Of a DNA stretch of 18,692 bases, positions 2,015-16,081 are shown piece after piece (the first letter of the stretch is position 1; every line of letters begins with the position of its first letter). The stretch comes from an uncultured Lentisphaeraceae bacterium. Lineage in GTDB: Bacteria; Verrucomicrobiota; Kiritimatiellia; RFP12; UBA1067. The stretch is from NCBI GenBank assembly GCA_964643945.1, contig CAZXVN010000184.1, forward strand, positions 1 to 18,692. Direction: 5' to 3'. The position numbers and the translations under genes were made by a program. The notes under the pieces were generated by a model. That model made no database searches. It was given only the letters and a program-made list of their open reading frames with translations, and was not told where the DNA came from.

Positions 2015-2016
2015 GC

Positions 2017-2358: not shown

Positions 2359-2957
2359 TCGTTCCAGAGCCCGATCTGCAGGCCGGCGCCGCTCTCGGCG
2401 TGGTTGATCAGGCCGATCTGCAGGCCGCGCAGACGCGTCGCGACATTCCAGATGCCGCCGATCTGAATGCCATTGACCGTATCCGCCCGATTGTGGATAA
2501 ACGTTACTTGAAGGGCGAGGGGCGCGTCGCCTTTAATCCGGTTATAGAGCCCTCCCACCTGGATGCCGCTGAAATCGTTGCAGATGTTGTCGAAAAAGTT
2601 GCAACTGATGCCGGCCGCATCGCCGTTGATCTCGCCGCTCACGCCGACATCAATCCCGTAGATGTCGTTGTGCCCGGCGGGCCAACCCGGCGAGCAGGCG
2701 TTCACACGAAGACCGTAGACGTTCCACCCGCGGGAGTAAGGGATACCCCACTCCAGCACCGTAATCGCGAGCGGGGTCACAGGCCCTTCGTGAGAGGTCT
2801 GCACCGATACGCCACCCGTTGCGCCCATCGGCACCGTGCCGGGCGGCACCGTCGAAGGCGGGGCCGTCTTACCCCCCGGGTTCATGTCCGTCCCGGCTGC
2901 CGCCGCGAGGGCGAGCCCCACCGCGACGCCCGCCGTCACTATTTGTTTCATCTTCAT
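2316..2957 (-). CDS. secreted Gly-rich beta-repeat protein (signal peptide; repeated G-x-Q-I/V-G-G/L-x-N units)
   Basis: Signal peptide MKMKQIVTAGVAVGLALAAAAG; AAGGA RBS upstream. Internal repeats GIQVGGLYN, GIQIGGIWN, GLQIGLINH, GLQIGLWNE. Confidence 0.65.
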   Translation of the reverse strand: MKMKQIVTAGVAVGLALAAAAGTDMNPGGKTAPPSTVPPGTVPMGATGGVSVQTSHEGPVTPLAITVLEWGIPYSRGWNVYGLRVNACSPGWPAGHNDIYGIDVGVSGEINGDAAGISCNFFDNICNDFSGIQVGGLYNRIKGDAPLALQVTFIHNRADTVNGIQIGGIWNVATRLRGLQIGLINHAESGAGLQIGLWNECGTTGSPILGAVF

Positions 2958-2988: not shown

Positions 2989-3876
2989 TCACCGATGGAT
3001 ATTCAGCTCCTCAATCGTGTAAAGCCGGTTGATGATTCCGTCCGGGAAACGGTCGCGGTCATACACGATCCGGGCCTGCAACGTCCTGTTGACGTTATCC
3101 GTCGCAAGGATCGTACAGTCGTAAACCCCGGCGAGCGCGCGCACCCGTTGCGTAAACAGGGTCGGGTATTCCGAGTGAGACGAGAGGAACCAGGCGTTGG
3201 CGATCGTCACCATGCAGATCTCTGCCTTGCCGCCGACCTTCACACACGCGTCCGCCAGCCAGGGCGACACGGTTGTGGCCATCTTGTCGGCCACACTCTT
3301 CAGCGCGTCTCCTGCACCACGTCCGGGCGCGCCCTGCACGTCAAACCGGTTACGCGCCACCATGTCCGTCATCACCTGTTTCGTGATGGCGTTGAACTCC
3401 GGCGAGCGGGTAACAGTCGCATCCACATCGCCCTTATAAACCACCCGCGTACCGCGCGCGTTCAGCGGTTCGCAGGTCACGCCGAGGTCCGCATAGAGCT
3501 CGGCCGGCCCGTCATAGACCACTTTGTAGTTGGCGGCCGCCAGCGCGCCTTGCACGCCGTTGCCGAGCAGCGTCGCAACCTGCGTGGCATCCTGCCCCGC
3601 AGCCACGGGACGCACCCGCACCCGTACCTGCTCCAACACCGCCGACGCCGTGGCGATCTGGGTTTGCGCCGGACGCAGATCCACCGCCGTCGGACGCGCG
3701 CCAACCCCGGTCACCTGCACCGGCTGCGGCGTCACGATCATTCCGGGACTGGCCGTCACGGACACGCCGCCGGCCGTTGTTGCGGGATAGAGCACCGTCT
3801 TCGTTTCCACCGTCCGGCAGCCTGTCATCGCCAGCGCGAGCATGCCGGCACCTGTCACAAACATCATTTTTTTCAT
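2989..3876 (-). CDS. hypothetical lipoprotein
   Basis: Lipoprotein signal MKKMMFVTGAGMLALAMTGC (lipobox LAMTGC). 16-nt gap to the upstream gene and 31-nt gap to the downstream gene. Confidence 0.65.
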   Translation of the reverse strand: MKKMMFVTGAGMLALAMTGCRTVETKTVLYPATTAGGVSVTASPGMIVTPQPVQVTGVGARPTAVDLRPAQTQIATASAVLEQVRVRVRPVAAGQDATQVATLLGNGVQGALAAANYKVVYDGPAELYADLGVTCEPLNARGTRVVYKGDVDATVTRSPEFNAITKQVMTDMVARNRFDVQGAPGRGAGDALKSVADKMATTVSPWLADACVKVGGKAEICMVTIANAWFLSSHSEYPTLFTQRVRALAGVYDCTILATDNVNRTLQARIVYDRDRFPDGIINRLYTIEELNIHR

Positions 3877-3892: not shown

Positions 3893-5110
3893 TCAGCGCA
3901 CGCGGAAAATCAGCCGCGAGGCAAACCAACACACAACGAACACAATCAACAGCAGCACGATGTTGCGCAGCGTGACCAGCGCCAAAAGCTGGTCCACCAC
4001 GTTCTCCTGCAGCACATCCGGCTTGTAAATGCCGCGTCCGCTGGCGGCCGCGACGATCGCGAAGCTGTCGTTGATGTCACGGAACTTCGCGTCGAACACG
4101 ACCTCGGTGCGGATGGCGTTGGCCTTGATTGCCGTCGCCGAGCCCGTCACCGCGCCGATCCGGTCGCCGACCGGATCAACGACCGTCACGGGCGAGGCGT
4201 CCAGCACCGACACCGCGCCGGAAAGCACCGCCACCTTATCGCTGGCCGAACCTCGCTCCCCGCCGATGTCCTGATTGATCCGCTTGAGCAGAGAGTTGCT
4301 GACCTGCCGGTTCGTACCCACACGTTCGCGCAGAAAACGGGCCATCATCCGGTCGCGCACACTGCCGTTGGGGAGGTCAAGCACGCGGATGCTTTGCTCC
4401 TTGGAAAGACAGCGCAGGAAGTTCTGGGTCATGGCCCGGCCCAATGGGCCTTCCAGCGGCAGCACCAGAATCCGGTATCCCGCCAAACGCGAGAGCACCT
4501 GGCTAGCCGCATCTTCCGCCGCCTTCTCCATGGCCATGCGCGTGTTGCGGCTGACCATCTCGTTGTCCGGGCCCGGATCGTCGTAGATGCCCTCGACCGT
4601 TCCCGCCCACAGCCGCTCCGCCGTTTCAATACTGATCAGCCGTAATGAAACCCGCACGCTCGCTTTGCCGGCCCCGTCCGTCGCGTCAATCACACGTCCG
4701 ATGATGAAGGCTTCGGCCATTTTGAAAACGCCCGTTTTCGGCAGCGTCGCGGGATCATAATCGCCGAAGTCCGTGGCGGCGTCAAAGAACCGGTCGACTT
4801 CCGTCCACTCGGCCGCCTGATCCTGATGCGTCAGAAATTCAAACTCGGAAGGCGCCTGCACCAGCCCGTTCTCGAACACCGTTGCGAACTCGTTGCCTTC
4901 GGGAATCTTCGCGTTTCCCCGCATGAGTTTGACGAACGCGATGCGTTTGACTTTCACGCGGCTGTCCGTGGTCATTTGCATGACCGCCTGGAAAGCGGCG
5001 TCCTCCGCTGCGTATGAAAGCTCCCGCGGACCAGCGGTAACCGTCTGAGCGGTTGTGAGAAACCCCACGGTGCCAAGCGCGGCAACCGCGAGACCTGTGA
5101 AACGTTTCAT
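3893..5110 (-). CDS. exported protein with N-terminal signal peptide and C-terminal TM anchor; tandem domains loosely reminiscent of a CsgG/LpoB-type fold (inference)
   Basis: The internal ATG at 5110 has a strong RBS (AAAGGAG, 7 nt spacer). The track ORF 3893-5500 extends further upstream through repeat array 5275-5351, which is unlikely to be coding. Signal peptide MKRFTGLAVAALGTVGFLTTAQTVTA; C-terminal NIVLLLIVFVVCWFASRLIF. Confidence 0.6.
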   Translation of the reverse strand: MKRFTGLAVAALGTVGFLTTAQTVTAGPRELSYAAEDAAFQAVMQMTTDSRVKVKRIAFVKLMRGNAKIPEGNEFATVFENGLVQAPSEFEFLTHQDQAAEWTEVDRFFDAATDFGDYDPATLPKTGVFKMAEAFIIGRVIDATDGAGKASVRVSLRLISIETAERLWAGTVEGIYDDPGPDNEMVSRNTRMAMEKAAEDAASQVLSRLAGYRILVLPLEGPLGRAMTQNFLRCLSKEQSIRVLDLPNGSVRDRMMARFLRERVGTNRQVSNSLLKRINQDIGGERGSASDKVAVLSGAVSVLDASPVTVVDPVGDRIGAVTGSATAIKANAIRTEVVFDAKFRDINDSFAIVAAASGRGIYKPDVLQENVVDQLLALVTLRNIVLLLIVFVVCWFASRLIFRVR

Positions 5111-6235: not shown

Positions 6236-6326
<91 letters not shown>

Positions 6327-6346
6327 TTTTTCCCTTAAACGCCGCT

Positions 6347-6376
6347 ATCTTACGTTTTGTTTACGTCTGTTGTCAA
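6347..6376 (-). promoter_or_regulatory. sigma70-like promoter (minus strand: TTGACA, 18-nt spacer, TAAGAT), copy A of a duplicated ~50-bp element; AT-rich UP-like tract at 6381-6440
   Basis: On the minus strand the sequence reads TTGACAACAGACGTAAACAAAACGTAAGAT. It is near-identical to 15977-16006 (4 mismatches over ~52 bp). Confidence 0.5.
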
Positions 6377-6482
6377 CTGCTATTATCAATTATTTTTAAA
6401 TTATTTTATTTTATCTCTGTTACTCATTACACGAACTCGAATCTTTCGCCGCTCTCGCCCCCCCATCGGACGGGCCCGCCCC

Positions 6483-7694
6483 TCACAACGTTCCCCCGGC
6501 CTCCAGCCAATCAGGAAGATACAGACGCCGCACGCCCTCGTAATCGTCGCCCGCCTCGCGGTCGAGCGTGAGCAACACCTTCGGATAGTTGTCTTTAACC
6601 GCCAGCAGCGGCGCGGTCTCCCGCTCGACCGTCGCCTTCGTCGGCAACAGATACGCGACCTGGATATACGTCTTCTTGCCCTCGCGCTCGGCCACGAAAT
6701 CGATCTCGAGATCGCCAACCCGCCCGACAGACACACGACAGCCCCTGCGCAGAAGCTCGAGACAGACCACATTCTCGAGCACTCCCCCGATATCGTCCGC
6801 ACGGTGTCCGAGCAAGGCCGTACGCAACCCCAGATCGCCGACATAGTGCTTCTCGTTCACCTCCAGATGCCGCCGGCCCTTGATATCGTACAGCAGCACC
6901 CGGTGGGTCAGGTGCGCCTCCGCGAACCACCGCATGTAATTCAGGATGGTGTCCACCCCCACGGAAAGTTTCTGACTCTTCAGAAACGCGTTGATCCGGC
7001 TGGCGTTCGTGAGATTGCCGATGTTGTCGAAAATATACCGCCCCACCTTTTCGAGCAGGGCGTAGTTCCGCACCTGATGACGCCGCACAATGTCCTTCAG
7101 CATGATCGTGTCGTAAACGCCCGTGACAAACGGCAGGAACGTCGCCTCGGCAAGCGGCCCGAACTCGTGCAGGCCGGGCAGCCCGCCATAGCGCAAGAAG
7201 GCCCTGAACGCCTCGGCTGTTTCCGTTTTCCGCAACCCGTTGAACGCCCGGAACTCCGTAAAGGAAAGCGGGTAGACCTGCACCTCCACGAACCTTCCCG
7301 CCAGCAGCGTGGCCAGCTCGCCGGAAAGCATCCGGGCGTTCGACCCGGTGATCACCACGTCCATGTCGCGCCGCCCGGACCCGTCCGCAACGATCCGCTC
7401 CCAGCCCTCGATCTCCTGGATCTCATCCACGAAAACGTGGCAGACCCCCTTGCCTTTCGGGCACGCGGCTTTCACATGCGCCGCCAGATCATGATACGTG
7501 CGGATCGCGTCGAACGCATACGACTCCTTGTCGACGTAGACGATCCGCTCCCGCCTCACCCCGTCCGCGACCAGCTTGTCGATCAGCCGGACCAGACAGC
7601 TCTTGCCCGAACGCCGCATCCCGGTGACGACCTTCACCACCGGCTTGCCCAGAAACGGCTCGATCTGCTTCACATAGAGATTTCGCTTATACAC
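6483..7694 (-). CDS. AAA_14 / DUF4143 family ATP-binding protein
   Basis: GTG start with AAGGAG RBS 8 nt upstream. Walker A GMRRSGKS, Walker-B-like HVFVDEIQ, and the long C-terminal region typical of the DUF4143 family. Confidence 0.8.
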   Translation of the reverse strand: MYKRNLYVKQIEPFLGKPVVKVVTGMRRSGKSCLVRLIDKLVADGVRRERIVYVDKESYAFDAIRTYHDLAAHVKAACPKGKGVCHVFVDEIQEIEGWERIVADGSGRRDMDVVITGSNARMLSGELATLLAGRFVEVQVYPLSFTEFRAFNGLRKTETAEAFRAFLRYGGLPGLHEFGPLAEATFLPFVTGVYDTIMLKDIVRRHQVRNYALLEKVGRYIFDNIGNLTNASRINAFLKSQKLSVGVDTILNYMRWFAEAHLTHRVLLYDIKGRRHLEVNEKHYVGDLGLRTALLGHRADDIGGVLENVVCLELLRRGCRVSVGRVGDLEIDFVAEREGKKTYIQVAYLLPTKATVERETAPLLAVKDNYPKVLLTLDREAGDDYEGVRRLYLPDWLEAGGTL

Positions 7695-7735
7695 GACAAA
7701 AACTCCTTAATGCCGATTCCTTTTGATATGGACGA

Positions 7736-7764
7736 AATATATCATAACCCGTCACCGCACACAA
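7736..7764 (-). promoter_or_regulatory. candidate promoter for 6483-7694 (minus strand: TTGTGT, 17 nt, TATATT)
   Basis: Read directly on the minus strand, about 45 nt upstream of the GTG start. Confidence 0.3.
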
Positions 7765-7771
7765 CCAGGTG

Positions 7772-7921
7772 TTACCCGGCCCGCGTCGCGTCCTCATTCA
7801 TCGTCTGCTGCCTGTTGTCCACCAACACGTTCGCTGGCTTGATGTCGCGGTGGACCACGCCCTGCCCGTGCGCGTATGCCAAAGCCTCCGCCACCTGCCC
7901 GCCCCACCACACGTCCAGCAT
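7772..7921 (-). pseudogene. relic fragment of a Ser/Thr kinase gene (subdomain VIb: [25 protein letters not shown])
   Basis: A 49-codon minus-strand [52 protein letters not shown]. The nucleotide sequence is similar to 9527-9600 of kinase 8023-10128. No N- or C-terminal kinase lobes flank it. Confidence 0.5.
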
Positions 7922-8022
7922 CGCACTCCGCTCGGGGTTCGTACCTTACCCTCGTCCCCACCGATTCCCGCAGCTCCCCTCAACTAATGCACTTCTCGCA
8001 CTAATGCAACAATACACTTCTT

Positions 8023-10128
8023 CTACTGACCTGGGAGAAGGACAGCCCGGAACCCGATCCTGGAGTCGCGGTGGTTCGGTTTGCGGCCGCCGCGGTCCGC
8101 AACCCGGCAATCGCCCGCGTAGCCGCGCCAACTGCCGCCGCGGGCCACGCGGGGCGAGCCCGACGTCGGACCTGCGGGATCAGTCACACTCCCGGACGGA
8201 TAATCGCCGTACCAGTCCTGGCACCACTCCCACACGTTGCCGAGCATGTCGTAAAGACCCCAGGCGTTCGCCTGTTTCTGCCCTACAGCATGCGTCACCT
8301 GCCCACTGTTGCCGCTATACCAGCCCATATCCAGAGCTCCTGCATACGATCCCACCGCCCCCGCTCGACAAGCATACTCCCACTCCGCCTCCGTCGGCAG
8401 CCGAAACCGTCCCCCGGGAGGGACGCGCGTCTGCGCGTCCGCCAGCTTCGCGTTCAGCTTCCTCATAAACTCCTGACAGTCCTCCCAACTCACCTTCTCC
8501 ACCGGCAAATCAGCGCTCTTAAAGTTGCTGGGGTTGGTGCCCATGACTGCCCCCCACTGCCGCTGCGTCACCTCGGTCTTCCCCATCCAAAACCCCTTAG
8601 TAAGCGTCACCCGGTGCTGTGTCTCGTCTTTAGACCGGCCCGTTTCGCTTTCGGGACTCCCCATCATAAAGCTACCCGCCGGGCACCACGCCAGCTCGAT
8701 CTTCACGCCGCCGCCGAGGTCTAAAGTCTCCGTGTCGCCAGGGTTATGTCCGGCCTTCTGCACGGCGGCGCTTGCCACCTTTAGCCTCTCGCTTTCAGCA
8801 GCCAACGCTTCCTGCTTATGCGTTTCTTCCTGCTCGGACGCCGGACGCGCAGACGCGCGTCCCTCCGAGGCGTTAACGGGAGGGTCAAGCGTCTGCTTGA
8901 CCGCAAGACGCGCCTGTATCTCATGCCGGTTCCAAAAAGCCGCGAACCCATAGGCGGTCACAGCCGCAACCGCTCCAGCCGCAACCCACAGCCACGCCTT
9001 CCTCTTTCCTCCGCCATCCGCCTTCTGGCCACCGCCCTCTGGCTCCCGACGCCCGACGCCCGACTCACGACTCTCGACTCCCTGTCTTACGACCTCCACC
9101 TTCCAGTTTCTCTCCCCCTGCCCTCCGGCACCCTTTCCCGCCAGCGCCTTCACAAATTCCCCGCAGCTCGCGAACCTCTCCCCCGGCTCTTTTGCCAGCG
9201 CCCGCAACAGCGCCGCGTTGACATGCGCCGGCACGCCTTCCAGCGGACGGGGTGCCTCTTTCAGCACCGCCTCGCGCAGCACCGCTGTGTCGTGGCCCTC
9301 GAAGGGCGGCGACCCGCCCACCAGCTCGTAGACCGTCGCCGCCAGCGCGTACTGGTCCGCGGGCGCGCCCTGCGGCCGCCCCTGCCACTGCTCCGGCGCC
9401 ATGTAGGGTCCCGTGCCGCTCGTGCCGTGGGTGGTCTGGCTCACGCGGCTCAGGCTCATGTGCAATTGCGCCGCGAGCCCGAAGTCCAGCACCTTCACCT
9501 CGCCCGCGAAGTTCACCCGCACGTTGCTCGGCTTGATGTCGCGGTGGATCACGCCCTGCTCGTGCGCGAAGTCCAGCGCCTCCGCGATCCGGTAGGCGAT
9601 GATCGTCACCTCGTCCAGCGTCAGCGGCCGGCCCTCCTCGCGCCGCCGCCGCACCCACTGCCGCACGTCGTAGCCGTCCACGCACTCCATGACCAGATAA
9701 TAGTCGCCCGTGACCGGATCCTTCTCCAGCGTGTTGACGTTGGCGATGTTCGGGTGGTGGAGCTTCGAGACCAGCCGGAAGTTCTCGCGCACCTCCTCCA
9801 TCTCGCCGCTGTTGTGCCCCACCTCCGGAGGCAGCGCCTTCAGCGCCACATCCAAGCCCGCCACCTCATCGTGGCAGCGGTACACCACGCCCATGCCGCC
9901 CTGCCCAAGCTCCCCCTCCACCCGGTAGCGCCCCAAAAGCACCTCGCCGGCCGCTAGGCGCCGCCCCGCAGGCCCCGCCCCGCCCGGCCGCATCGTCTTG
10001 ACGCTGCCTAGGCTCAAGTCATCCGCGGGTGCGCTCCCGCCATGCCGCAGGGTCGGCGAATCGCCCAGGCTGCGGTCGTCCGGCGGCTTGCCGCCCATCG
10101 TCTTTTGATTGCCGATCGAGTTATCCAT
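8023..10128 (-). CDS. Hanks-type Ser/Thr protein kinase - TM - FGE-sulfatase (SUMF1-like) domain fusion
   Basis: LGQGGMGVVY, ALK, HRDIKPSNV, DFGLA, YMAPEQW; TM segment WLWVAAGAVAAVTAYGFAAF; C-terminal FGE-like region (GSFMMGSP ... GLYDMLGNVWEW ... RGGSW). The start is uncertain because there is no clear RBS at 10128. Confidence 0.85.
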   Translation of the reverse strand: MDNSIGNQKTMGGKPPDDRSLGDSPTLRHGGSAPADDLSLGSVKTMRPGGAGPAGRRLAAGEVLLGRYRVEGELGQGGMGVVYRCHDEVAGLDVALKALPPEVGHNSGEMEEVRENFRLVSKLHHPNIANVNTLEKDPVTGDYYLVMECVDGYDVRQWVRRRREEGRPLTLDEVTIIAYRIAEALDFAHEQGVIHRDIKPSNVRVNFAGEVKVLDFGLAAQLHMSLSRVSQTTHGTSGTGPYMAPEQWQGRPQGAPADQYALAATVYELVGGSPPFEGHDTAVLREAVLKEAPRPLEGVPAHVNAALLRALAKEPGERFASCGEFVKALAGKGAGGQGERNWKVEVVRQGVESRESGVGRREPEGGGQKADGGGKRKAWLWVAAGAVAAVTAYGFAAFWNRHEIQARLAVKQTLDPPVNASEGRASARPASEQEETHKQEALAAESERLKVASAAVQKAGHNPGDTETLDLGGGVKIELAWCPAGSFMMGSPESETGRSKDETQHRVTLTKGFWMGKTEVTQRQWGAVMGTNPSNFKSADLPVEKVSWEDCQEFMRKLNAKLADAQTRVPPGGRFRLPTEAEWEYACRAGAVGSYAGALDMGWYSGNSGQVTHAVGQKQANAWGLYDMLGNVWEWCQDWYGDYPSGSVTDPAGPTSGSPRVARGGSWRGYAGDCRVADRGGRKPNHRDSRIGFRAVLLPGQ
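9044..9114 (+). repeat. degenerate heptamer-periodic array (TCCCGAC/GCCCGAC/TCACGAC/TCTCGAC...) lying in-frame inside kinase 8023-10128
   Basis: 7-nt periodicity read directly. It encodes VEVVRQGVESRESGVGRRE at the position homologous to the ER/K inserts of kinase 1-1391. Confidence 0.5.
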
Positions 10129-10151
10129 GGTGTTTGCTTGAGAAACCAGAT

Positions 10152-10165
10152 GTCAGGAGTCAGAA
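10152..10165 (-). repeat. reverse-orientation heptamer copy (gtcagga gtcagaa); inverted partner of 10191-10232
   Basis: Read directly. Confidence 0.5.
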
Positions 10166-10190
10166 TGCGTGCATCTTTCACCGCATTTCA

Positions 10191-10232
10191 TTCTGTCTTC
10201 TGACTTCTGTCTCCTGACTCCTGTCTTCTGTC
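10191..10232 (+). repeat. heptamer array, 6 units, in the Vps4-like to kinase spacer
   Basis: ttctgtc ttctgac ttctgtc tcctgac tcctgtc ttctgtc. Confidence 0.8.
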
Positions 10233-10234
10233 GC

Positions 10235-11353
10235 CTATCCGAACCGCGCCTGCCTGAACTTTTCGAACTCGCGCAGCATCGCTTCCGTGATCGAGCTGGG
10301 GACGCGCCGCCGCGCCTCCTCGAAGTCCCCTGCCGTCAAAACAGGATCGCCATCTTCAAGCACGGCGCGGCCGAGCGCAAGGCGCTTGGCCGTGTTCACG
10401 ACCGCCGCCACGTCGCTCCCGGAAAAGCCCTCCAGCGCCTCCGCCAGCGCGCCTCCATCCACCGCCTCGCCGCACACGGCGCTTCCCAGATGCTTTTTGA
10501 AAATGCCCAGCCGAGCCTCGGCGTCCGGCGGCCCGATGAAAATCTTCTCGTCGAAACGCCCCGTGCGGAACACCGCCTCGTCGATCTCCCACGGCTTGTT
10601 CGTGGCGCCCAGGATCAACAGCACGTTCTTCGTCTCGCGGAAACCGCCCACATCCGCCAGGAACTGCGTCACGATGCGGTGGTCGGCACCGGAGGTGCCG
10701 TCGTCGCGCTTGGGCAGCAGCGCCTCGACCTCGTCCAGAAACAGCACCGCCATCGGCTGCTCCTGAGCCGTGCGGATCAGCCGGCTCAGCCGCTGCTCCG
10801 ACTCGCCGTACCACTTGGACCGCAACTGCGCGCCCGAGGCATAGTAGAACGGACACTCCAGCACTCCCGCCACCGCCTTGCCCAGCATCGTCTTGCCGGT
10901 GCCGGGAGGGCCGTACACCAGCACGCCCCCGCCCGGATTCAGCCCCAGCGCCCGCGCTTTCTCGGGGCTCTTCATCGGATACACCACCATCTCGTGGATC
11001 ACGCGCTTCGCGTCGGCCATGCCCGCAATGTCGTCGAATGTCACGTCCGGCTTCTCCGCCACCAGCCACTCGTCGCCGTCGGAAGGCTCGACGCTCGACT
11101 CACGACCAGCGACGGGCGAATGCTGACCGCCGCCCGCCGACTGCCGCTTCTTTAGCTCATTCGCCAGCGCCACCCACCCCTCCGCGTCCTGCGCGTGCGC
11201 CTCGGCCACAGGCCCGCTGCTGCGCTCCGCCAGCGCGAAGCCGCACTCCGCCGCGCGCGCCGCCGCCGCCGCCGCACGCCCGTAGTCGCGCACCTTGACG
11301 AACTCCGCGCAGGCGTTCTCGTGCCCCGTTTTGATCTCAACCATCGAGCGCAT
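10235..11353 (-). CDS. Vps4-like (meiotic clade) AAA+ ATPase with ~100-aa N-terminal extension (possible MIT-like domain)
   Basis: Walker A GPPGTGKT; pore loop 1 SKWYGESE (the Vps4/spastin/katanin signature); Walker B LFLDEVEA; GATNKPWEIDEAVFRTGRFD; C-terminal helix MLREFEKFRQARFG (compare the Vps4 C-terminal ...W..EFG). The start follows the upstream gene's stop by 12 nt, with RBS GAGAGGGGA. Confidence 0.85.
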   Translation of the reverse strand: MRSMVEIKTGHENACAEFVKVRDYGRAAAAAARAAECGFALAERSSGPVAEAHAQDAEGWVALANELKKRQSAGGGQHSPVAGRESSVEPSDGDEWLVAEKPDVTFDDIAGMADAKRVIHEMVVYPMKSPEKARALGLNPGGGVLVYGPPGTGKTMLGKAVAGVLECPFYYASGAQLRSKWYGESEQRLSRLIRTAQEQPMAVLFLDEVEALLPKRDDGTSGADHRIVTQFLADVGGFRETKNVLLILGATNKPWEIDEAVFRTGRFDEKIFIGPPDAEARLGIFKKHLGSAVCGEAVDGGALAEALEGFSGSDVAAVVNTAKRLALGRAVLEDGDPVLTAGDFEEARRRVPSSITEAMLREFEKFRQARFG

Positions 11354-11365
11354 CGTTGTCCCCTC

Positions 11366-11989
11366 TCACTTCAGCATCTCGCGCACCTTCTCCTGGCCGC
11401 CGCCGATGCGGCGTTCCAGATCGGAAGAGGTCTTCGCGCTCACGCCGGAAATGTCGGCGGACACCTCCTGCTCCAGCGATTTCGTCAGCTCCTCCATGGA
11501 CGGGATGTGGTCCTGCATGTTGCCTGTCGCGCCTTCCATCTCCTTGTCGTACAGCGACGCCCAGAAGCGGTCCGCGTCCTGCTGCTCGCCCAGCAACTCG
11601 CCCGCCGTGTCGAACACGTCCTCGACCATTTCCGGATTGATGTCCGTTACCTTGTTGACCGCCGCCAGTGCGCTGGCGAACTCGGCGTCGGTCCCGGCGG
11701 TCTCCATCTTCATGAGATACTGCTCGAACACCCAGCGCTTCTGCTCCAGCTTGGTCATCAGCACCTGCGCCGCGCGGTAGCTGGTCAGGGAGCGCTGCGC
11801 GGCCGCCTTCTTTCCTTCCTTGAGCGCGTCCCGCGCCTTCTGCCAGTCCGCCTCCGCGTCCTTCTCCATACGCTTGGCGCGGTCTTTCACATCCTGCACC
11901 GCGTTCTCCGCCTGCCGGAACGCCCGCCGCCGGTCCTTGCGCACCGCCCGCTCTTTTTCCTTCTTCGTCTTGATGAATAGAAAACTCAT
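11366..11989 (-). CDS. ESCRT-III / Snf7-family (PspA-Vipp1 superfamily) protein
   Basis: 207 aa. N-terminus MSFLFIKTKKEKE resembles the CHMP/Snf7 MxxLFGK motif. Basic helical N-half (KDRRRAFRQAENAVQDVKDRAKRMEKDAE...KEGKKAAAQRSL) and acidic C-half (PEMVEDVFDTAGELLGEQQDAD...). C-terminal SSDLERRIGGGQEKVREMLK resembles a MIM1 (D/E)xxLxxRL motif. Strong RBS AAAGGAG. The next gene downstream is the Vps4-like ATPase. Confidence 0.65.
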   Translation of the reverse strand: MSFLFIKTKKEKERAVRKDRRRAFRQAENAVQDVKDRAKRMEKDAEADWQKARDALKEGKKAAAQRSLTSYRAAQVLMTKLEQKRWVFEQYLMKMETAGTDAEFASALAAVNKVTDINPEMVEDVFDTAGELLGEQQDADRFWASLYDKEMEGATGNMQDHIPSMEELTKSLEQEVSADISGVSAKTSSDLERRIGGGQEKVREMLK

Positions 11990-12008
11990 ACCATGCTCCT
12001 TTCTGAAC

Positions 12009-12043
12009 AGCAGAAGACAGAAGTCAGAAGACAGAAGTCAGAA
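12009..12043 (-). repeat. reverse-orientation heptamer array, 5 units; inverted partner of 12082-12154
   Basis: cagcaga gacagaa gtcagaa gacagaa gtcagaa. Confidence 0.8.
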
Positions 12044-12081
12044 TAAACACGTCGAGAAAGTCGCTTTTGTCGATCGTTCCA

Positions 12082-12154
12082 TTCTGATTCCTGACTCCTG
12101 ACTTCTGTCTCCCGTCTCATTCTGACTTCTGACTCCTGTCTCCTGACTCCTGCC
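12082..12154 (+). repeat. heptamer array, ~10 units, in the FHA to ESCRT-III spacer
   Basis: ttctgat tcctgac tcctgac ttctgtc tcccgtc ... ttctgac ttctgac tcctgtc tcctgac tcctgcc. Confidence 0.8.
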
Positions 12155-12157
12155 GTC

Positions 12158-13735
12158 TCACAGCCCATACTGACTAAACGTCTTGACCTCGATCTGCACG
12201 CCGCCCGCGCCGATCCGCGTGCCGGGCACCAGCCACCCCGCCGCACCCTCCGCACGCCAGGCGAACGCGCCGCGCTCGTGGCACACCGTCACCCCCTCGC
12301 ACCCCGGCAGAATGTTCCCGAGATCCAGGCAGGACCACATCACCGCATAGACCTCCGACACCGCGTCCCGGCGCCGCAGGATGACCGCAGGCGTCTTGCC
12401 GCGGTGGCACATCTTCTCGTCGCGCCCCCCGCACGCCGCGCACCGCGCCGTATCGAAAAAGCAGCCGTGCGCCGTCAGCCCGAAATCGTATGCGTCCGCC
12501 GTGCCCGCCAACCCCAGCGCGGCCACTGCGGGAAAACGGTCCGCCGGAAAGCGCTCGCTGCCCTTGACCGCCCGACCCTGCCAGAAAACCCCGCAGGCGG
12601 AGGCTTGCATCACACCGTTCTCAGTCCGCACACCGTCATGCACAATGCACTGCCCGTCGGCGTACTCCAGCGTGCAGTGAAACTTGCTGATGCGCGCGTT
12701 GCGTTCAGGAAGGGCCTCGCCGTCCGGCTCGAACAACCGCGTCACGATCTGATTGGCGCGGTTCTTGCCCAATGTGACCCGACTTCCCGCGATCAGATGC
12801 GCAATCCGGTTCCCGACGCGAAGAGTCACCCGCTCGGCCGTCGCCGCCGCAGGTGCCGCAGGCAGCGGGTGATGCAGCACCCAGCCCGACTCAAAAAGAC
12901 TCAGCCGGTGAAACGCCGGCGGCTTGGAGTGCAGCAGGTTCAGCAGTTCCTCGATCGAATGGGCCTGCCCGTTCTTGACCAGCTTGCTCACCGCCTCGGC
13001 CGCGTCCTGGTGTACACGGATATCCGCCGCATGCCCGGCCTTGATGTCGTTGTTGATGTTGAAGGTGATGTTGTCCGCGACCTGCTTGGTCGAACAGTCC
13101 GCCGGATAAACGAACAGGCATACCTCGGTCTCGTATGTGGTGGTCTTGCCGTCTTTCGTCAGCCCGAAGTAGACCGACGCCGAGAACGCGCCGTGATTCA
13201 TGGGATGCACCGGCAGGTTGATCCCGCGCGGCACCCCGAGCTTGGGGTTCGGCCAGTTGAAGGGATGCTCGACCACCTGAGAGATCCCGTTCGGCTTGAG
13301 CCACACGCGGACGTGCTGGACACCCTCGACAAGCGGCGTCAGCCGGAAGCGCACCAGCGCGCTGGCACCCGCCACGCAGAACGCCAGGGTGTCGCTTTCC
13401 ACACACAGCCACGGGCAATCCCCGAAGCCGTCATCGTCCGTGCCGACGCTCTGCGCCGCCGCAGTCCGCTCATTGACGGGTTCGGTGTTGAGCAGAATGA
13501 TCCGGGCCGGCCGCTCGTCAGGATCTGGCGTCCTGATGATCGCGGCAACCGCCGACGGCGCCTCGCCCACGGAATCGCCCGGCCTCCGCAGATAAGTCGG
13601 CTCCGGCCGGAAACCGCTCTCGGCTTCCGCAGGCGTTGCCGCCGACGGACCCGGCGCCAGCGGCGCGCCGCATCTGTCGCAGAACGAGCCCTCTACCGTC
13701 TTCCCTCCGCATGTCCGGCAACTCACCCGAGCCAT
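12158..13735 (-). CDS. zinc-ribbon + FHA-domain protein with Cys-rich C-terminal region
   Basis: N-terminal CRTCGGKTVEGSFCDRCG. FHA-like core GKNRANQIVTRL...RISKFHCTLEYADGQCIVHDGVRTENGVMQASACGV. C-terminal CAACGG...C..GCEGVTVC. RBS GAGGAG 8 nt upstream; the start lies 12 nt after the upstream stop. Confidence 0.7.
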   Translation of the reverse strand: MARVSCRTCGGKTVEGSFCDRCGAPLAPGPSAATPAEAESGFRPEPTYLRRPGDSVGEAPSAVAAIIRTPDPDERPARIILLNTEPVNERTAAAQSVGTDDDGFGDCPWLCVESDTLAFCVAGASALVRFRLTPLVEGVQHVRVWLKPNGISQVVEHPFNWPNPKLGVPRGINLPVHPMNHGAFSASVYFGLTKDGKTTTYETEVCLFVYPADCSTKQVADNITFNINNDIKAGHAADIRVHQDAAEAVSKLVKNGQAHSIEELLNLLHSKPPAFHRLSLFESGWVLHHPLPAAPAAATAERVTLRVGNRIAHLIAGSRVTLGKNRANQIVTRLFEPDGEALPERNARISKFHCTLEYADGQCIVHDGVRTENGVMQASACGVFWQGRAVKGSERFPADRFPAVAALGLAGTADAYDFGLTAHGCFFDTARCAACGGRDEKMCHRGKTPAVILRRRDAVSEVYAVMWSCLDLGNILPGCEGVTVCHERGAFAWRAEGAAGWLVPGTRIGAGGVQIEVKTFSQYGL

Positions 13736-13747
13736 AAGTTATTCTCC

Positions 13748-15418
13748 TCAATGCACGATCGTCTGCGGCTGGGCCGCCTGCCGTTTGGCAGCCTCCACCG
13801 CCGGCTCGAGCATCGTTTTCAGGTTCTTGTCCTGCCGGTCGTTGGCATCCGCGTAGAGCTTCTTCATCTCAGCCAGCAGCATCTCGGCGTTCTGCCTGGT
13901 GCGGTCGCTCATCTTGCCGAGCGCCTCCGCCGCCGCCGGGCTGCTGTGCGCCGCCTCGGCCAGGATCTGCTCGGGCGTCATCGTGCGGTTGCGCTCCACC
14001 ATCATCAGCTCGACCAGCTGACGCCGCAGGGCGGGATCGTCCACATCCGCCAGCATCTGCTCCGTGGTCATCCCCGCACGCCGCTTGGCCTCAGCCGCCT
14101 TGCGCTCCAGCTCTATCCCGTCTTTCCGGGAACGCATGTCCAGCGCCCACTCCGCCTCGGTCTTCTCCTGCTGGAACGTCTCGTTCCGGGCCTTGGCCTG
14201 CGCGTTGGCCTGCTTCACGGCAAGCTCAAGATTGTAATCGTCCCATTTGACCTTGACGCCGATCGCCTGCTCCGCCTTCTGGTTCTCGACATCGTGCCGG
14301 TGCCGCAGATCGTCCAGCTCGTTCAGATGCGCATAGCCGCGCAGCAGCACCGTCCGCTCCTGCTCGCGCTGGGCCTGCGCGATGCCGTGCTCGTGCGCGG
14401 CCTGCTCCTCGTACTCCAGCAGGTCGGTCTTGTCCTTGAACTGGGCCATCGCCTCTTTGTTCAGCAGCCCGCGCATGGCCGACGCGTACTCCAGCTCGCG
14501 CCGCTTGATGTCCACCTCGCCGAGCCGCTCCGCGTACTCCTCGTACTCGTCGCCCGTGAACTCCGCCGACGACACGCGCACCACCTGCAGGCCGTACCGC
14601 CCGATGTCCTCGCCGATCGCCCGGACCATCGTCTCCTGCAGGCGCAGCCGCCGCTCAGGATCGCGCACAAGGTCATCCAGCGTAGAGGTCACGCACAGCG
14701 CGTCCACCGCCGCGCGCACCGCCCCCTGCAGCGCCTCGGAAAGATCCTTGTACGCCAGATGACGCCGGTCCTTGAGCCCGTTCTCCAGCAGCGCCAGCGC
14801 GGCGGCCTTGTCATTGCCGAACCGCAGGATCACCTCGCCGTAGAACTCGATCGGGTGATGCTCCGCCGTACGCAGACCGGTCACGCGCAGCGGCAGCGCC
14901 ACGTCGCCGCAGTCGGCCATCACTGCCGAGCGCGGGGGCGGGTCGCCGAACCAGTTGATCTTGCGCGCCAGGCTGTCCGGGTTGTGACGGCCGCTCTCGA
15001 GGATGCCGTGGATGTGGCCGCCGTCCAGCACCACCGCCACCGTGCCCTCCTGCACCATCAGGTCGTCCTGCAAGAGCCGCTTGATGTCGCCGATCTCGAA
15101 GCGCTGCGCGAACAGCCCCGGATCCTTGCGCCACACGCCGCCGGCCATCACCGCGCGGTCTTCCGGGAAGAGCGGGGTGTTGCAGTGCGAGCAATACTGC
15201 GACGCGTTGCCGATCCACTTCTTGCACGAGGGACACTTCCACCAGCCCCCCGGCGCGGGCACGCCGCACTTGTTGCAGAAGCGCGCGGCCTTGCGCACCG
15301 AATTGCCGCAGCGCGCCCACTTCGGATCCAGTTTCGCCTGCGCCAAGGCCTCGCCGCCCAGCGCCCGCCCCGTCCGGGGGTCGATCAAAGCGTCACACCG
15401 GTCACTGAATATGCCCAT
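13748..15418 (-). CDS. zinc-ribbon + SPFH (band-7 / flotillin-like) protein with long C-terminal coiled coil
   Basis: Two CxxC pairs (CGNSVRKAARFCNKCG, CPSCKKW...CSHCNTP), then an SPFH core (QEGTVAVVLDGGHIHGILESGRHNPDS ... GLQVVRVSSAEF), then ~250 aa of E/K/R/A-rich coiled coil. RBS AAAGGCGAGGT. Confidence 0.75.
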   Translation of the reverse strand: MGIFSDRCDALIDPRTGRALGGEALAQAKLDPKWARCGNSVRKAARFCNKCGVPAPGGWWKCPSCKKWIGNASQYCSHCNTPLFPEDRAVMAGGVWRKDPGLFAQRFEIGDIKRLLQDDLMVQEGTVAVVLDGGHIHGILESGRHNPDSLARKINWFGDPPPRSAVMADCGDVALPLRVTGLRTAEHHPIEFYGEVILRFGNDKAAALALLENGLKDRRHLAYKDLSEALQGAVRAAVDALCVTSTLDDLVRDPERRLRLQETMVRAIGEDIGRYGLQVVRVSSAEFTGDEYEEYAERLGEVDIKRRELEYASAMRGLLNKEAMAQFKDKTDLLEYEEQAAHEHGIAQAQREQERTVLLRGYAHLNELDDLRHRHDVENQKAEQAIGVKVKWDDYNLELAVKQANAQAKARNETFQQEKTEAEWALDMRSRKDGIELERKAAEAKRRAGMTTEQMLADVDDPALRRQLVELMMVERNRTMTPEQILAEAAHSSPAAAEALGKMSDRTRQNAEMLLAEMKKLYADANDRQDKNLKTMLEPAVEAAKRQAAQPQTIVH

Positions 15419-15526
15419 CGTATACCTCGCCTTTCATTGATTCGAATTCAACAGTCGGATTAGCACTAATCCTTATTCAGTTTTAAACACAATACCCGAA
15501 TCCATTCATTCATGCACGAAATTACT

Positions 15527-15540
15527 AACAGAAGTCAGAA
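15527..15540 (-). repeat. reverse-orientation heptamer copy (aacagaa gtcagaa); inverted partner of 15594-15621
   Basis: Read directly. Confidence 0.5.
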
Positions 15541-15589
15541 TAGTGGAAGAATTTGCTTTCAACCGTTTGCCCGTCTTCTCTTTCCCGCC

Positions 15590-15949
15590 TCAGTCTGACT
15601 TCTGTCTTCTGACTTCCGGCTTCTTCTCCCCATGTGCCCCGCACACTCGCACGCCCTGCCGTTTCCAGCAATCGAAACAGACCGGCGCGCCGCAGACCGT
15701 GCAGGCCTGCTGCAGCGCGCCCTTGCTCCGGTAATAGGTGCCGCACGCCTCGCAGGTCCCGCCTTCGGCGGCCTCCCGCTTGCTGCGGCTCAAATAGTCG
15801 CCCAGATCCGTCCGCGAGACCCGGTACAGCTTGCCCAGGCGCGCGGCGGGCAGCTCGCCCGCGCGCACCAGCCGGTAGATGAGTTGATAGGTCACGCCCA
15901 TCTCGTCCGCTACCTCCTCCAGGCTCAGATGCTCTTTGTCCGTCGGCAT
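15590..15949 (-). CDS. HTH_17 (MerR/excisionase-family) DNA-binding protein with C-terminal zinc ribbon; putative regulator and first gene of string 1
   Basis: LSLEEVADEMGVTYQLIYRLVRAGELPAARLGKLYRV (helix-turn-helix), then CEACG...CTVCG..CFDC...C. The preferred start is the ATG at 15949 with GGAGGTG 7 nt upstream; the track's 15955 is a GTG inside the RBS. The last codons read into repeat array 15594-15621. Confidence 0.65.
   Translation of the reverse strand: MPTDKEHLSLEEVADEMGVTYQLIYRLVRAGELPAARLGKLYRVSRTDLGDYLSRSKREAAEGGTCEACGTYYRSKGALQQACTVCGAPVCFDCWKRQGVRVCGAHGEKKPEVRRQKSD
15594..15621 (+). repeat. heptamer array, 4 units, forming the C-terminus of the regulator gene
   Basis: gtctgac ttctgtc ttctgac ttccggc; encodes ...PEVRRQKSD*. 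Confidence 0.75.
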
Positions 15950-15976
15950 ATACACACCTCCTCTTAAAACGCCGCC

Positions 15977-16006
15977 ATCTTACGTTTTGTTTACTTCTGT
16001 TGTCAA
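15977..16006 (-). promoter_or_regulatory. sigma70-like promoter, copy B of the duplicated element (minus strand TTGACA, 18 nt, TAAGAT), ~25-nt leader to the regulator gene; AT-rich UP-like tract at 16011-16075
   Basis: On the minus strand the sequence reads TTGACAACAGAAGTAAACAAAACGTAAGATGGCGGCGTTTTAAGAGGAGGTGTGTATATG. Confidence 0.55.
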
Positions 16007-16081
16007 CAGCTATTTTAAAATATTTTTTATTGCTGTATTTTTATGCCTGATATAGCGTCCCTTAAACGGTTTCCCTGCTAC

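Follow-up and report, generated by a model that had tools for sequence, protein, structure and literature searches.

At euryarchaeal ESCRT-III/Vps4 loci there are also genes for FHA proteins, for membrane kinases and for an SPFH protein that combines a zinc ribbon and a coiled coil, and B. subtilis PspA is localised by the SPFH protein YdjI (PMC10936438). Here we examine the window, 18,692 nt of DNA from an uncultured bacterium of the PVC group, in which six co-directional ORFs on the minus strand encode HTH_17, SPFH, FHA, ESCRT-III, AAA and kinase proteins (Table 1). All six are where the original prediction had placed them. The cluster extends past 8023, where it had been proposed to end: a second unit, headed by the gene X1, lies further on. 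We found no published description of this cluster in the literature.

Table 1. Features of the cluster and their positions in the window
Feature	Coordinates	Strand	Description
Second Ser/Thr kinase	1..1391	-	TM helix and FGE domain; cut by window end
X5 and X6, small single-pass membrane proteins	1556..2199	-	X5 2199..2016, X6 2014..1556
X4 secreted protein	2316..2957	-	GxQIG repeats
X3 lipoprotein	2989..3876	-	Lipobox LAMTGC
X2	3893..5110	-	Secreted/periplasmic; signal peptide, C-terminal TM anchor
X1, 315 aa	5232..6179	-	N-terminal zinc finger, linker, long alpha-helical hairpin domain
Promoter P2	6330..6400	-	Second copy of P1; ~75 nt alike
AAA_14/DUF4143 ATPase gene	6483..7694	-	Interloper; position differs between loci
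Kinase gene remnant	7775..7925	-	NCBI call is a 49-aa ORF
Hanks-type Ser/Thr kinase	8023..10128	-	HRD, DFG, APE present; Pkinase, FGE-sulfatase-like extracytoplasmic domain
Intergenic hairpin	10129..10234	-	Inverted heptamer arrays
Classic-clade AAA+ ATPase, single-cassette, 372 aa	10235..11353	-	AAA E 2.9e-35
Snf7-type ESCRT-III protein, 207 aa	11366..11989	-	Five helices
Intergenic long hairpin	11990..12157	-	Inverted GWCAGRA heptamer arrays
FHA protein, 525 aa	12158..13735	-	Zinc ribbon, linker, middle domain, FHA, conserved Cys-rich C-terminal domain
SPFH/Band_7 protein, 556 aa	13748..15418	-	Double zinc ribbon, long coiled coil, no TM helix
HTH_17/excisionase-type DNA-binding protein	15590..15949	-	C-terminal Cys-rich zinc finger
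Promoter P1	15960..16030	-	AT-rich upstream tract, -35, 18-nt spacer, -10, GGCGGCG discriminator

By analogy, the cluster is best read as resembling the euryarchaeal ESCRT loci that are associated with FHA, kinase and SPFH genes. With the Halo_FHA, 'Main' and Meth_adaptin clades (Makarova et al. 2024, PMC10936438) it shares an ESCRT-III gene adjoining that of a single-cassette AAA protein, an FHA protein, membrane-associated Ser/Thr kinases and a zinc-ribbon coiled-coil SPFH protein, a likeness of gene content. However, the host here is a diderm PVC bacterium, the MIT domain is undetectable, the window contains no phosphatase gene, and we could not identify wH (ESCRT-II-like), adaptin-like or Cas2-like partners. 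In place of a CdvA-like tail, the FHA protein has a Cys-rich domain at its C-terminus, and its N-terminus is a zinc ribbon; X1, the HTH_17 regulator, the FGE-type kinase ectodomains and the periplasmic and lipoprotein partners are additional. Crenarchaeal CdvABC and eukaryotic ESCRT-III/Vps4 have in common with the cluster the Snf7/CdvB-type fold and family and an ATPase gene directly after the ESCRT-III gene, and X1 is fixed beside the ESCRT-III/AAA pair much as CdvA is beside CdvB. In contrast to these systems, the cluster lacks ESCRT-I and ESCRT-II components and any link to ubiquitin, and the ATPase lies under all Vps4/CdvC thresholds; nor does X1 have detectable similarity to CdvA or ESCRT-III.

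In bacteria, PspA/Vipp1 (Psp) systems with SPFH/flotillin proteins (PMC11237479) share the ESCRT-III superfamily, the inner-membrane setting, a Band_7/SPFH partner and a regulon of stress type under a regulator of its own. The protein here is of Snf7 type rather than PspA_IM30, however, PspB, PspC, PspF and Toastrack are all absent, and the ATPase belongs to the classic AAA clade and is no PspF-type bEBP. Archaea-derived Vps4-like ATPases, single-cassette like the present one, have been reported among bacteria, Verrucomicrobia included (Opitutus ACB74714.1; Ravi et al. 2024), but in those operons a TPR-6TM protein replaces snf7, whereas here the ESCRT-III gene is kept, adjacent to that of the ATPase.

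The ESCRT-III protein of the window scores under the Pfam Snf7 cutoff (20.4 vs 27.3); Snf7 was matched by all 21 family members tested (best E 4.4e-9) and PspA_IM30 by none. Its top PDB profile match is the yeast Snf7 core, and the top 17 Foldseek matches of its AlphaFold model are CdvB2, Asgard ESCRT-IIIB, CdvB, CHMP1B, Snf7 and IST1. The proposed ESCRT-III-like identity is thus upheld, with the correction that the protein is Snf7/CdvB-type and not 'PspA-type'. It carries an N-terminal hydrophobic/basic motif, MSFLFIKTKKEKER. We could not find a convincing MIM motif in the protein, and a 193-aa subgroup of the family entirely lacks the C-terminal tail.

The AAA+ ATPase has a conserved helical N-domain of ~68 aa followed by a low-complexity linker, and a catalytic cassette that is intact, including Walker A and B, with a conserved aromatic pore loop (SKWYGESEQ). 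Its gene starts 12 nt past the Snf7 stop codon. It had been called Vps4-like, a label that is partly supported: it rests on architecture and position, namely a single-cassette classic AAA beside ESCRT-III, without Vps4-specific sequence features. No MIT domain could be recognised by sequence in any of 26 orthologues, there was no sequence match to Vps4_C, the CdvC model gave 191 bits against a cutoff of 650, and the C-terminal part best matches p97/Cdc48/VAT D2, ahead of any Vps4 chain. Pairing of SPFH proteins with AAA machines is an established theme, and the cluster might serve membrane-protein quality control, as do HflK/C-FtsH or prohibitin-m-AAA, with the Cdc48-D2-like ATPase extracting phospho-marked, FHA-recognised substrates and the Snf7-like protein being an accessory scaffold rather than a substrate of the ATPase. 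The undetected MIT domain, an ATPase as close to Cdc48/p97/VAT D2 as to CdvC, or closer, and the plausibility of substrate choice by FHA would all suit this. We nevertheless regard it as quite improbable, given that the ATPase has neither a TM segment nor a protease domain, that the cluster has no conserved protease, and that the tightest and commonest neighbour of the ATPase gene is the ESCRT-III gene (12-32 nt away in several genomes), whereas no locus has the SPFH gene beside it.

The HTH protein, whose true start is probably the ATG at 15949, combines an HTH_17/excisionase domain (Pfam E 1.4e-11; TIGR01764 50 bits) with a Cys-rich tail behind it. Homology links its zinc finger to the N-terminus of X1 (hhalign probability 96%, E 4.5e-9), and the protein is presumed to regulate both units. 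The SPFH protein exceeds the Band_7/SPFH cutoff (31.3 vs 23.6 bits), the orthologues in L001-L008 also match Band_7, and the gene is present in 18 of the 24 loci whose upstream flank reaches 8 kb or more. For the FHA protein, the window copy falls under the FHA cutoff (16.9 vs 20.7), with FHA matched in 22 of 24 orthologues (best E 4.7e-12), and the canonical phosphate-binding Arg is replaced by Lys. Zinc-ribbon FHA proteins were found by tblastn in 14/24 loci, with four further divergent copies in L019, L043, L045 and L046. The top PDB profile match (E 3.3e-7) is Sulfolobus ArnA, a partner of Hanks kinases, which likewise has an N-terminal zinc ribbon, a linker and FHA in a kinase-linked context; the FHA protein here, however, is twice as long, with additional middle and C-terminal Cys-rich domains, and ArnA is a transcription regulator of motility and DNA-damage genes with no ESCRT link. 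The ESCRT-III, FHA, SPFH and Hanks-kinase assignments are borne out.

TM helices are lacking in the HTH, SPFH, FHA, Snf7, AAA and X1 proteins and present in the kinases, X2, X5 and X6; X3 and X4 have signal peptides. The complete kinase has one TM helix (~residues 380-398), and the second kinase is 649 aa long in the full contig. Kinases were found in 16 of the 20 loci with enough flank and are the least fixed part of the cluster, with 0 to 6 copies at varying positions; the divergent locus L004 has none within 10 kb. The AAA_14/DUF4143 gene, which interrupts the Snf7-AAA pair in L008-L010 and occupies other positions in L032 and L035, is probably not part of the system.

Besides X1 and the second kinase, the second unit, behind P2, encodes four envelope and two small TM proteins. 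X1, which the NCBI call truncates to 260 aa without the zinc finger, adjoins the gene of Snf7 or of the AAA protein in 24 of the 26 genomes that are informative. It is a core component and partner of Snf7 and the AAA ATPase that had been overlooked, and it could be tied to none of the adaptor families. Relatives of X6 lie directly 5' of Snf7 in L004 and L031.

The promoter predicted at 15977-16006 is present, with -35 TTGACA (16006-16001) and -10 TAAGAT (15982-15977), and is the sole sigma-70-like site on the minus strand between 7500 and 16600 (16006..15977, TTGACA-N18-TAAGAT, 10/12). Short inverted repeats lie over the -35 (CTGTTG/CAACAG) and either side of the -10 (AAAACG-N11-CGTTTT), and the ~55-nt block is kept 5' of the HTH gene in L001, L008, L013 and L014. 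In 11 related loci, sigma-70-like promoters are found 58-71 nt 5' of the HTH gene and none 5' of the SPFH, FHA, Snf7 or AAA genes; promoter-like sites are confined to the 5' side of HTH and, in loci with a detached X1, of X1. The proposed single promoter covers only half of the system, since a copy, P2, heads the second unit. The P2 30-mer (6376..6347) differs from P1 at one position, one left free by the search pattern, which had 2 matches against 0 expected.

Both junctions said to be coupled have 12-nt gaps with ribosome-binding sites (13748/13735, GAGGAG; 11366/11353, GAGGGG). The larger gaps had been described as holding heptamer hairpins and no promoter; two do hold heptamer arrays, with strong predicted folding (12157-11990, dG -70.5 kcal/mol, z -5.9; 10234-10129, dG -37.7 kcal/mol, z -4.8), but the HTH/SPFH gap, which shrinks to 18-60 nt in relatives, offers no more than a weak 13-bp stem (z -1.2). 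Neither heptamer hairpin has a U-tract, and terminator-like matches, which lie inside coding sequence, show no excess (7 vs 5.4 +/- 2.5 by chance). The two hairpins could act in attenuation or processing of the transcript. We infer that the string is transcribed as a single unit and phospho-regulated.

The neighbourhood, with the same co-directional set of genes, is kept in 39 of 185,579 species-level genomes, which supports the proposed functional linkage; conservation in no related genome, which would have spoken against it, is not what was found. Assigned matches all belong to Kiritimatiellia, Lentisphaerae/Victivallales or Verrucomicrobiota, and all are uncultured MAGs, with no cultured strain. 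The AAA gene is present in 26 of the 30 loci with at least 2.5 kb downstream of Snf7, and is the gene immediately 3' of Snf7 in 22 loci. A Cdv/ESCRT-like core of ESCRT-III protein, AAA ATPase and coiled-coil adaptor-like protein, encoded alongside envelope proteins in a superphylum known for unusual membrane biology (PMC2799638), could point to a dedicated scission machine for cell division, budding of outer-membrane or intracellular vesicles, or endomembrane dynamics, and would then be a true functional equivalent of archaeal Cdv/ESCRT. This seems unlikely to us: so few genomes, all of those assigned being uncultured MAGs, make an essential division role improbable, and there is a single clear ESCRT-III paralogue.

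The distribution is patchy and the flanking genes are unlike between close relatives, which fits an accessory rather than a housekeeping function. This would also suit an anti-phage or other conflict system, in which infection or an attack on the envelope would be detected by the variable sensor kinases, and the membrane would be sealed, or purposely disrupted in an abortive-infection-like manner, by the ESCRT-III/AAA/SPFH module. The kinase-FGE paralogues have expanded to as many as 4-6 per locus and have been shuffled, the mobile-looking AAA_14/DUF4143 gene has varying insertion points, Peptidase_U49 (Lit-like) genes lie within the cluster in L005 and L006, the latter also with a PDDEXK_3 gene, and PADLOC gave matches to mad1, PD-T4-6 and IetA. 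These PADLOC matches, however, are to generic domains (HTH_17, Hanks kinase, AAA) and not to a system-specific model, the U49 gene is found in only 2 of ~45 loci, no conserved gene encodes a nuclease, a toxin or an NTP-depleting effector, and nothing was found on viral contigs. With core genes that are conserved (Snf7 54-92% identical), unlike those under diversifying selection, a conflict role is doubtful.

The explanation we favor, with a probability of roughly 0.55, is a phospho-regulated machine for inner-membrane remodelling or repair from the cytoplasmic face, built around the Snf7-type ESCRT-III polymer and encoded by a two-unit regulon. Both units, which have copies of one promoter/operator, would be transcribed from these under control of the HTH_17 zinc-finger protein. 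One or more membrane Ser/Thr kinases may sense an envelope or extracellular cue via the FGE-sulfatase-like ectodomains and phosphorylate threonines of cytoplasmic targets, and the zinc-ribbon FHA protein would read these and relay the signal to the machine. Judging from conserved adjacency, the TM-less zinc-ribbon SPFH/coiled-coil protein may be an oligomeric membrane scaffold, and the zinc-finger coiled-coil protein X1 an adaptor or nucleator. The ESCRT-III protein, given its fold and family, would polymerise on the inner membrane via its hydrophobic/basic N-terminus, and the adjacent, translationally coupled AAA+ ATPase would pull out subunits, as Vps4/CdvC do, so that the polymer is remodelled or recycled. 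Through its periplasmic, lipoprotein and small TM products, the second unit may link the process to the envelope.

The cluster is a conserved one that unites a Snf7-type ESCRT-III protein, of the kind found in eukaryotes and archaea, with an AAA+ ATPase, a flotillin-like protein, a phospho-threonine reader and membrane kinases. According to reviews of the field, bacteria lack such a combination.

The window, which belongs to contig JBAXCU010000023.1 of the MAG GCA_037141315.1, has a G+C content of 56-70%, and nearly all of its genes lie on the (-) strand. The original prediction had described a co-directional string joining an ESCRT-III/Vps4 pair to flotillin, FHA and Ser/Thr-kinase genes; all six of its open reading frames were found where it had placed them (see table), and the observation held overall for reading frames, promoter site, coupled junctions and gaps. 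The TTGACA-N18-TAAGAT site from which the string was said to be transcribed (P1) is the only sigma-70-like site on the (-) strand between positions 7500 and 16600. At the two short junctions, for which translational coupling had been proposed, the gaps are 12 nt and carry the RBSs GAGGAG and GAGGGG, which overlap or directly abut the upstream stop codon. The larger gaps are, as claimed, free of promoter-like sequence: those between the FHA and Snf7-type genes and between the AAA and kinase 1 genes hold inverted arrays of the heptamer GWCAGRA that form long hairpins (dG -70.5 kcal/mol, z -5.9, and dG -37.7, z -4.8, respectively), neither with a U-tract, and the HTH/SPFH gap holds a weak stem and nothing more. 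Terminator-like matches occurred at chance level, within genes, and the window gave no match in Rfam or in a tRNA scan.

Features of the window and of related loci from other genomes (L numbers), each in the numbering of its own locus
Locus	Feature	Position	Strand	Composition or setting
Window	Promoter P1	16006-15977	-	TTGACA-N18-TAAGAT, before HTH gene
Window	Inverted repeat	15997-16009		CTGTTG-A-CAACAG, overlaps -35 of P1
Window	Inverted repeat	15966-15988		AAAACG-N11-CGTTTT, flanks -10 of P1
Window	HTH protein	15590-15949	-	HTH_17/excisionase domain, Cys-rich tail
Window	SPFH protein	13748-15418	-	double zinc ribbon, Band_7/SPFH, long coiled coil
Window	FHA protein	12158-13735	-	zinc ribbon, FHA
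Window	ESCRT-III protein	11366-11989	-	Snf7
Window	ATPase	10235-11353	-	AAA, AAA_lid_3
Window	Kinase 1	8023-10128	-	Pkinase, one TM helix, FGE-sulfatase
Window	Kinase gene remnant	7775-7925	-	third Ser/Thr kinase, between kinase 1 stop and AAA_14; 49-aa ORF at NCBI
Window	AAA_14/DUF4143 gene	6483-7694	-	between kinase and X1
Window	Promoter P2	6376-6347	-	copy of P1, before X1
Window	X1	6179-5232	-	first gene of second unit
Window	X2	3893-5110	-	periplasmic, C-terminal anchor
Window	X3	2989-3876	-	lipoprotein
Window	X4	2316-2957	-	secreted
Window	X5, X6	1556-2199	-	small TM proteins
Window	Kinase 2	1-1391	-	
Window	GWCAGRA tandem arrays	242-259, 336-376, 782-817, 2215-2315, 5274-5359, 5967-6008, 6236-6328, 9043-9082, 10191-10232, 12011-12043, 12084-12152, 15594-15624	-	(-) strand reading
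L008	AAA_14/DUF4143 genes	10943-12061, 18018-19208		between Snf7 and AAA genes, as in L009 and L010
L032	AAA_14/DUF4143 gene	4824-6005		upstream of HTH gene
L035	AAA_14/DUF4143 gene	7376-8410		upstream of X1
L005	Peptidase_U49 (Lit-like) gene	13537-14565		inside cluster
L006	Peptidase_U49 (Lit-like) gene	5035-5961		inside cluster
L006	PDDEXK_3 gene	12117-12566		in cluster
L001	Kinase-FGE paralogue run	15256-20624		flanks cluster
L006	Kinase-FGE paralogue runs	551-2419, 6110-8272, 16158-20603		flank cluster
L014, L025, L027, L035	Kinase-FGE paralogue runs			around cluster

Sequence and fold evidence concur in assigning the Snf7-type protein to ESCRT-III. All 21 family members matched Snf7 (PF03357) at E<=0.1, with a best value of 4.4e-9, so that the match is firm at the family level even though the window protein alone is sub-threshold (20.4 versus a cutoff of 27.3 bits); the top PDB profile match was the yeast Snf7 core (E 0.04). 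An AlphaFold2 model of moderate confidence (21 sequences, pLDDT 69) shows three shorter helices after a long alpha1/alpha2 hairpin, and when it was compared with the PDB by Foldseek, ranks 1-17 were all ESCRT-III proteins (CdvB2, Asgard ESCRT-IIIB, CdvB, CHMP1B, Snf7 and IST1), with PspA and Vipp1 below them. The link to PspA-type proteins that had been drawn earlier was not borne out, as none of the 21 members matched PspA_IM30; Psp partner domains were likewise absent from the window. The N-terminus, with the consensus MxFLFFKTKKERER, looks like a putative hydrophobic/basic membrane-binding motif. Most members also share a conserved C-terminal motif, L..R...GQ.RVK.LL, which falls outside the MIM1 consensus and is missing from a 193-aa subgroup of the family.

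The ATPase carries just one AAA+ cassette, of the classic clade, with matches to Pfam AAA (E 2.9e-35) and AAA_lid_3. Its Walker A and B motifs are intact (GPPGTGKT, DEVE), and these and the pore loop SKW[YH]GESEQ are kept in all single-cassette orthologues except the most divergent (L049, with SKWVGESQK). Upstream of the cassette there is a conserved helical N-domain of ~68 aa and then a low-complexity linker. No MIT match to this N-domain was obtained, either in a Pfam scan of 26 orthologues (E<=10) or by PDB profile search, and Vps4_C gave no match at E<=0.01. NCBIfam scores were nearly equal for CDC48, CdvC and PAN (211, 191 and 188 bits) and all far under the cutoffs, which for the CdvC equivalog is 650 bits. 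With a profile of the C-terminal 110 aa, the best 60 PDB matches were all Cdc48-type (p97/Cdc48/VAT, AFG2, NVL and NSF), and no Vps4 or CdvC chain was among these 60. A search of 1.84 billion representatives with the ATPase was swamped by multi-cassette AAA proteins, which dominate the list because scores sum over cassettes; the full-length PDB search was swamped likewise. The ATPase gene starts 12 nt past the ESCRT-III stop codon, and an ESCRT neighbour is the second criterion for Vps4 of Makarova et al. (2024). The single cassette and the ESCRT neighbour speak for the earlier label "Vps4-like", whereas the lack of a Vps4_C match and the CdvC score speak against it, and on sequence grounds we could not demonstrate that the ATPase is a Vps4 orthologue. 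The Cdc48-type matches also allow for an SPFH-AAA quality-control module, whose Cdc48-like ATPase would not be dedicated to ESCRT-III; with the AAA gene right after Snf7 in 22 loci (a kinase gene in nine), we consider this quite improbable.

The ESCRT-III label and the other domain labels of the string, SPFH, FHA and Ser/Thr kinase, were all upheld. The SPFH protein matches Band_7 at 31.3 bits (Pfam threshold 23.6), and its orthologues have this domain too. No hydrophobic segment that could be an N-terminal membrane anchor of the stomatin, flotillin or HflK/C type was detected in it; a double zinc ribbon stands at its N-terminus instead, and by sequence this zinc-ribbon part alone was matched in the PDB (LapB-like). 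The FHA call is firm at the family level, with 22 of 24 orthologues matching (best E 4.7e-12), though the window protein alone is sub-threshold (16.9 versus 20.7 bits). Its loop residues G323, S350, H353, S379 and G382 are conserved (pattern G-R ... S-x-x-H ... S/N-G), and the canonical Arg is replaced by K in the window protein. Residues ~430-525 of this protein make up a conserved Cys-containing end domain (C..C...C..G..P.L.LRR.DG..E...LWSCF.LG ... GWL.PG), for which no Pfam or PDB match was found. Kinase 1 matches Pkinase at E 4.7e-42 and has the motifs HRDIKPSN, DFG and APE. In several related loci, the cluster is flanked by runs of up to four to six kinase-FGE paralogues, which points to a lineage-specific expansion of the sensor kinases.

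The original prediction had depended on the neighbourhood being conserved in related genomes, and we found that it is. Among the species-level loci with enough flanking sequence, 26 of 30 have the AAA gene, 16 of 20 a kinase on the same strand, 18 of 24 the SPFH gene and 14 of 24 the HTH gene; tblastn detected the zinc ribbon-FHA gene in 14 of 24, and at least four more have a divergent version of it at that place. With these counts, chance co-location can be rejected. Clustered at 90%, the relatives of the Snf7-like protein number 709, nearly all of them metagenomic proteins without a name, and the protein was found in 39 of the 185,579 genomes scanned (one genome per species). The taxon-assigned matches are all Kiritimatiellia, Lentisphaerae/Victivallales or "Verrucomicrobia" MAGs, one of them a 6.1-Mb closed chromosome. 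Only four relatives were obtained when the most divergent member was used as a query toward outgroups, and no relatives of the cluster were found on viral contigs. Such rarity speaks against an essential role, and we think it unlikely that the cluster is a true scission machine serving cell division or the budding of vesicles.

Conservation extends past the kinase to three more genes downstream of it. The first, X1, occurs in 24 of the 26 informative loci and so ranks as a core component; in most genomes it either immediately precedes Snf7 or immediately follows the AAA gene. In the window, the kinase, the kinase remnant and the AAA_14/DUF4143 gene lie between the AAA gene and X1. In the X1 protein, a zinc finger at the N-terminus is joined by a variable linker to a long helical hairpin domain (confident model, pLDDT 80). 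The public call (260 aa, WCK89_02665) begins at an internal Met and leaves out the zinc finger, whose Cys/His positions are conserved in the family and which only one of the 26 aligned orthologues lacks. The HTH protein ends in a homologous zinc finger (hhalign probability 96%, E 4.5e-9). The possibility that X1 is a second ESCRT-III paralogue was not supported: hhalign against the Snf7-like family gave a probability of 0.4%, the PDB profile search gave just CHMP4B (E 3.4), and Foldseek with the X1 model brought up coiled-coil hairpins of a generic kind, led by HP0958, with Vipp1 at ranks 30/35 and ESCRT-IIIB at rank 42. The cytoplasmic core proteins (zinc ribbon-SPFH, zinc ribbon-FHA, X1, Snf7-type ESCRT-III and AAA+ ATPase) are all free of TM helices, and zinc-binding modules occur in three of them and in the HTH regulator. 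The membrane is spanned by the kinases and the proteins of the second unit. Pfam gave nothing significant for X2-X6; X2 had a single match, LpoB-like (E 0.04).

The AAA_14/DUF4143 gene varies in position between genomes, which hints that it is mobile or was inserted repeatedly. Peptidase_U49 (Lit-like) genes were seen inside the cluster of two loci and a PDDEXK_3 gene in that of one, and a link of these genes to phage exclusion is possible. A conflict or anti-phage system would be in keeping with the patchy distribution and non-syntenic flanks of the cluster, its expanded kinases and the Lit-like peptidase genes found now and then. However, there is no specific PADLOC match, no toxic effector is conserved and no copies were found on viral contigs, making this interpretation improbable. 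The PADLOC-DB v2 matches were to generic domains only (mad1 HTH, PD-T4-6/mad6 kinase and IetA AAA), with nothing for SPFH, FHA, Snf7, X1, X2, X3 or X6.

The earlier proposal of one promoter may hold for unit 1 (HTH-SPFH-FHA-Snf7-AAA-kinase), which has the sole site P1, but not to the locus as a whole, because a copy, P2, heads unit 2 (X1-X2-X3-X4-X5-X6-kinase 2). The P1 30-mer has these two matches where none is expected, and ~75 nt around them are alike. As X1 has its own copy, the system here consists of two units with one promoter/operator type. The exact 30-mer has no match in 49 related loci; in alignment, the promoter block is kept with substitutions before the HTH gene in four related genomes and before a detached X1 in L008. 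Across loci, sigma-70-like sites lie 58-71 nt 5' of the HTH gene in 11 cases, and none was found before the SPFH, FHA, Snf7 or AAA genes. The inverted repeats at the promoter, partly kept in P2 and in relatives, are candidate operators for the HTH protein. The GWCAGRA arrays are both intergenic and intragenic, the latter in the HTH gene tail, X1 (two sites), kinase 1 and kinase 2 (three sites), where they encode low-complexity R/S/Q/K/T/E/D stretches. With a stricter regex for at least three tandem units, there are 11 arrays in the window versus 0-1 per related locus, suggestive of a microsatellite expansion that is specific to this genome and strongly biased in strand.

The best-supported reading is that of a machine for membrane remodelling or repair, to which we give a probability of roughly 55%. 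What this computational analysis of MAG sequences establishes is the identity of the domains, the ESCRT-III fold and the linkage of the genes; all of the interactions in this scheme are our inference. The kinases, with their FGE-like domains facing outward, would report an envelope cue, and the FHA protein would read the resulting phospho-threonine mark. SPFH and X1 might organise the site at which ESCRT-III would polymerise, and the ATPase would turn the polymer over.

Among described systems, the nearest are the ESCRT loci of Euryarchaeota reported by Makarova et al. (2024), in which ESCRT-III and Vps4 are found with FHA proteins and membrane Ser/Thr kinases, and in one clade also with an SPFH protein that has a zinc ribbon and a coiled coil (PMC10936438). 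The accessory proteins here are of the same kinds, likened by domain type. The abstract of that paper states that ESCRT components are not identifiable in bacteria (PMC10936438). Reviews present Snf7-type ESCRT-III as archaeal and eukaryotic, and bacteria as having PspA/Vipp1 only, with a Vps4-like partner apparently missing (PMC7619361, PMC8281802, PMC10936438); the last of these points is made in a 2025 review. Ravi et al. (2024) reported Vps4-like genes transferred to Verrucomicrobia and other bacteria, where a TPR-6TM gene displaces snf7, and some further cases in bacteria of Snf7/PspA being associated with AAA+ proteins that have two cassettes (PMC11237479). In contrast to that transfer, in which snf7 is lost, the Snf7-type protein and the AAA+ ATPase stay paired here. 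No published description of such a locus was found in the open-access full text searched, and we rate the locus as a variant of an ESCRT-III plus AAA+ system, not as categorically new.

More tentatively, the locus could encode a genuine ESCRT machine in a PVC lineage (Kiritimatiellia, Lentisphaerae and relatives), with a Snf7-type filament former, a Vps4-equivalent ATPase, X1 and the zinc ribbon-SPFH and -FHA proteins as adaptors, and Ser/Thr-kinase control. It would then share ancestry with the euryarchaeal FHA/kinase/SPFH ESCRT systems, through whole-module transfer or older inheritance, and would carry out ATP-driven scission or repair.

A conserved bacterial locus that keeps a Snf7-type protein and an AAA+ ATPase together offers a bacterial system in which the co-operation of ESCRT-III with an unfoldase can be tested, as can a link between Hanks-kinase/FHA signalling and membrane remodelling. 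It is also a test case for the inter-domain transfer of a whole membrane-remodelling module, and it brings a new element to the debate on the eukaryote-like membrane biology of the PVC superphylum.
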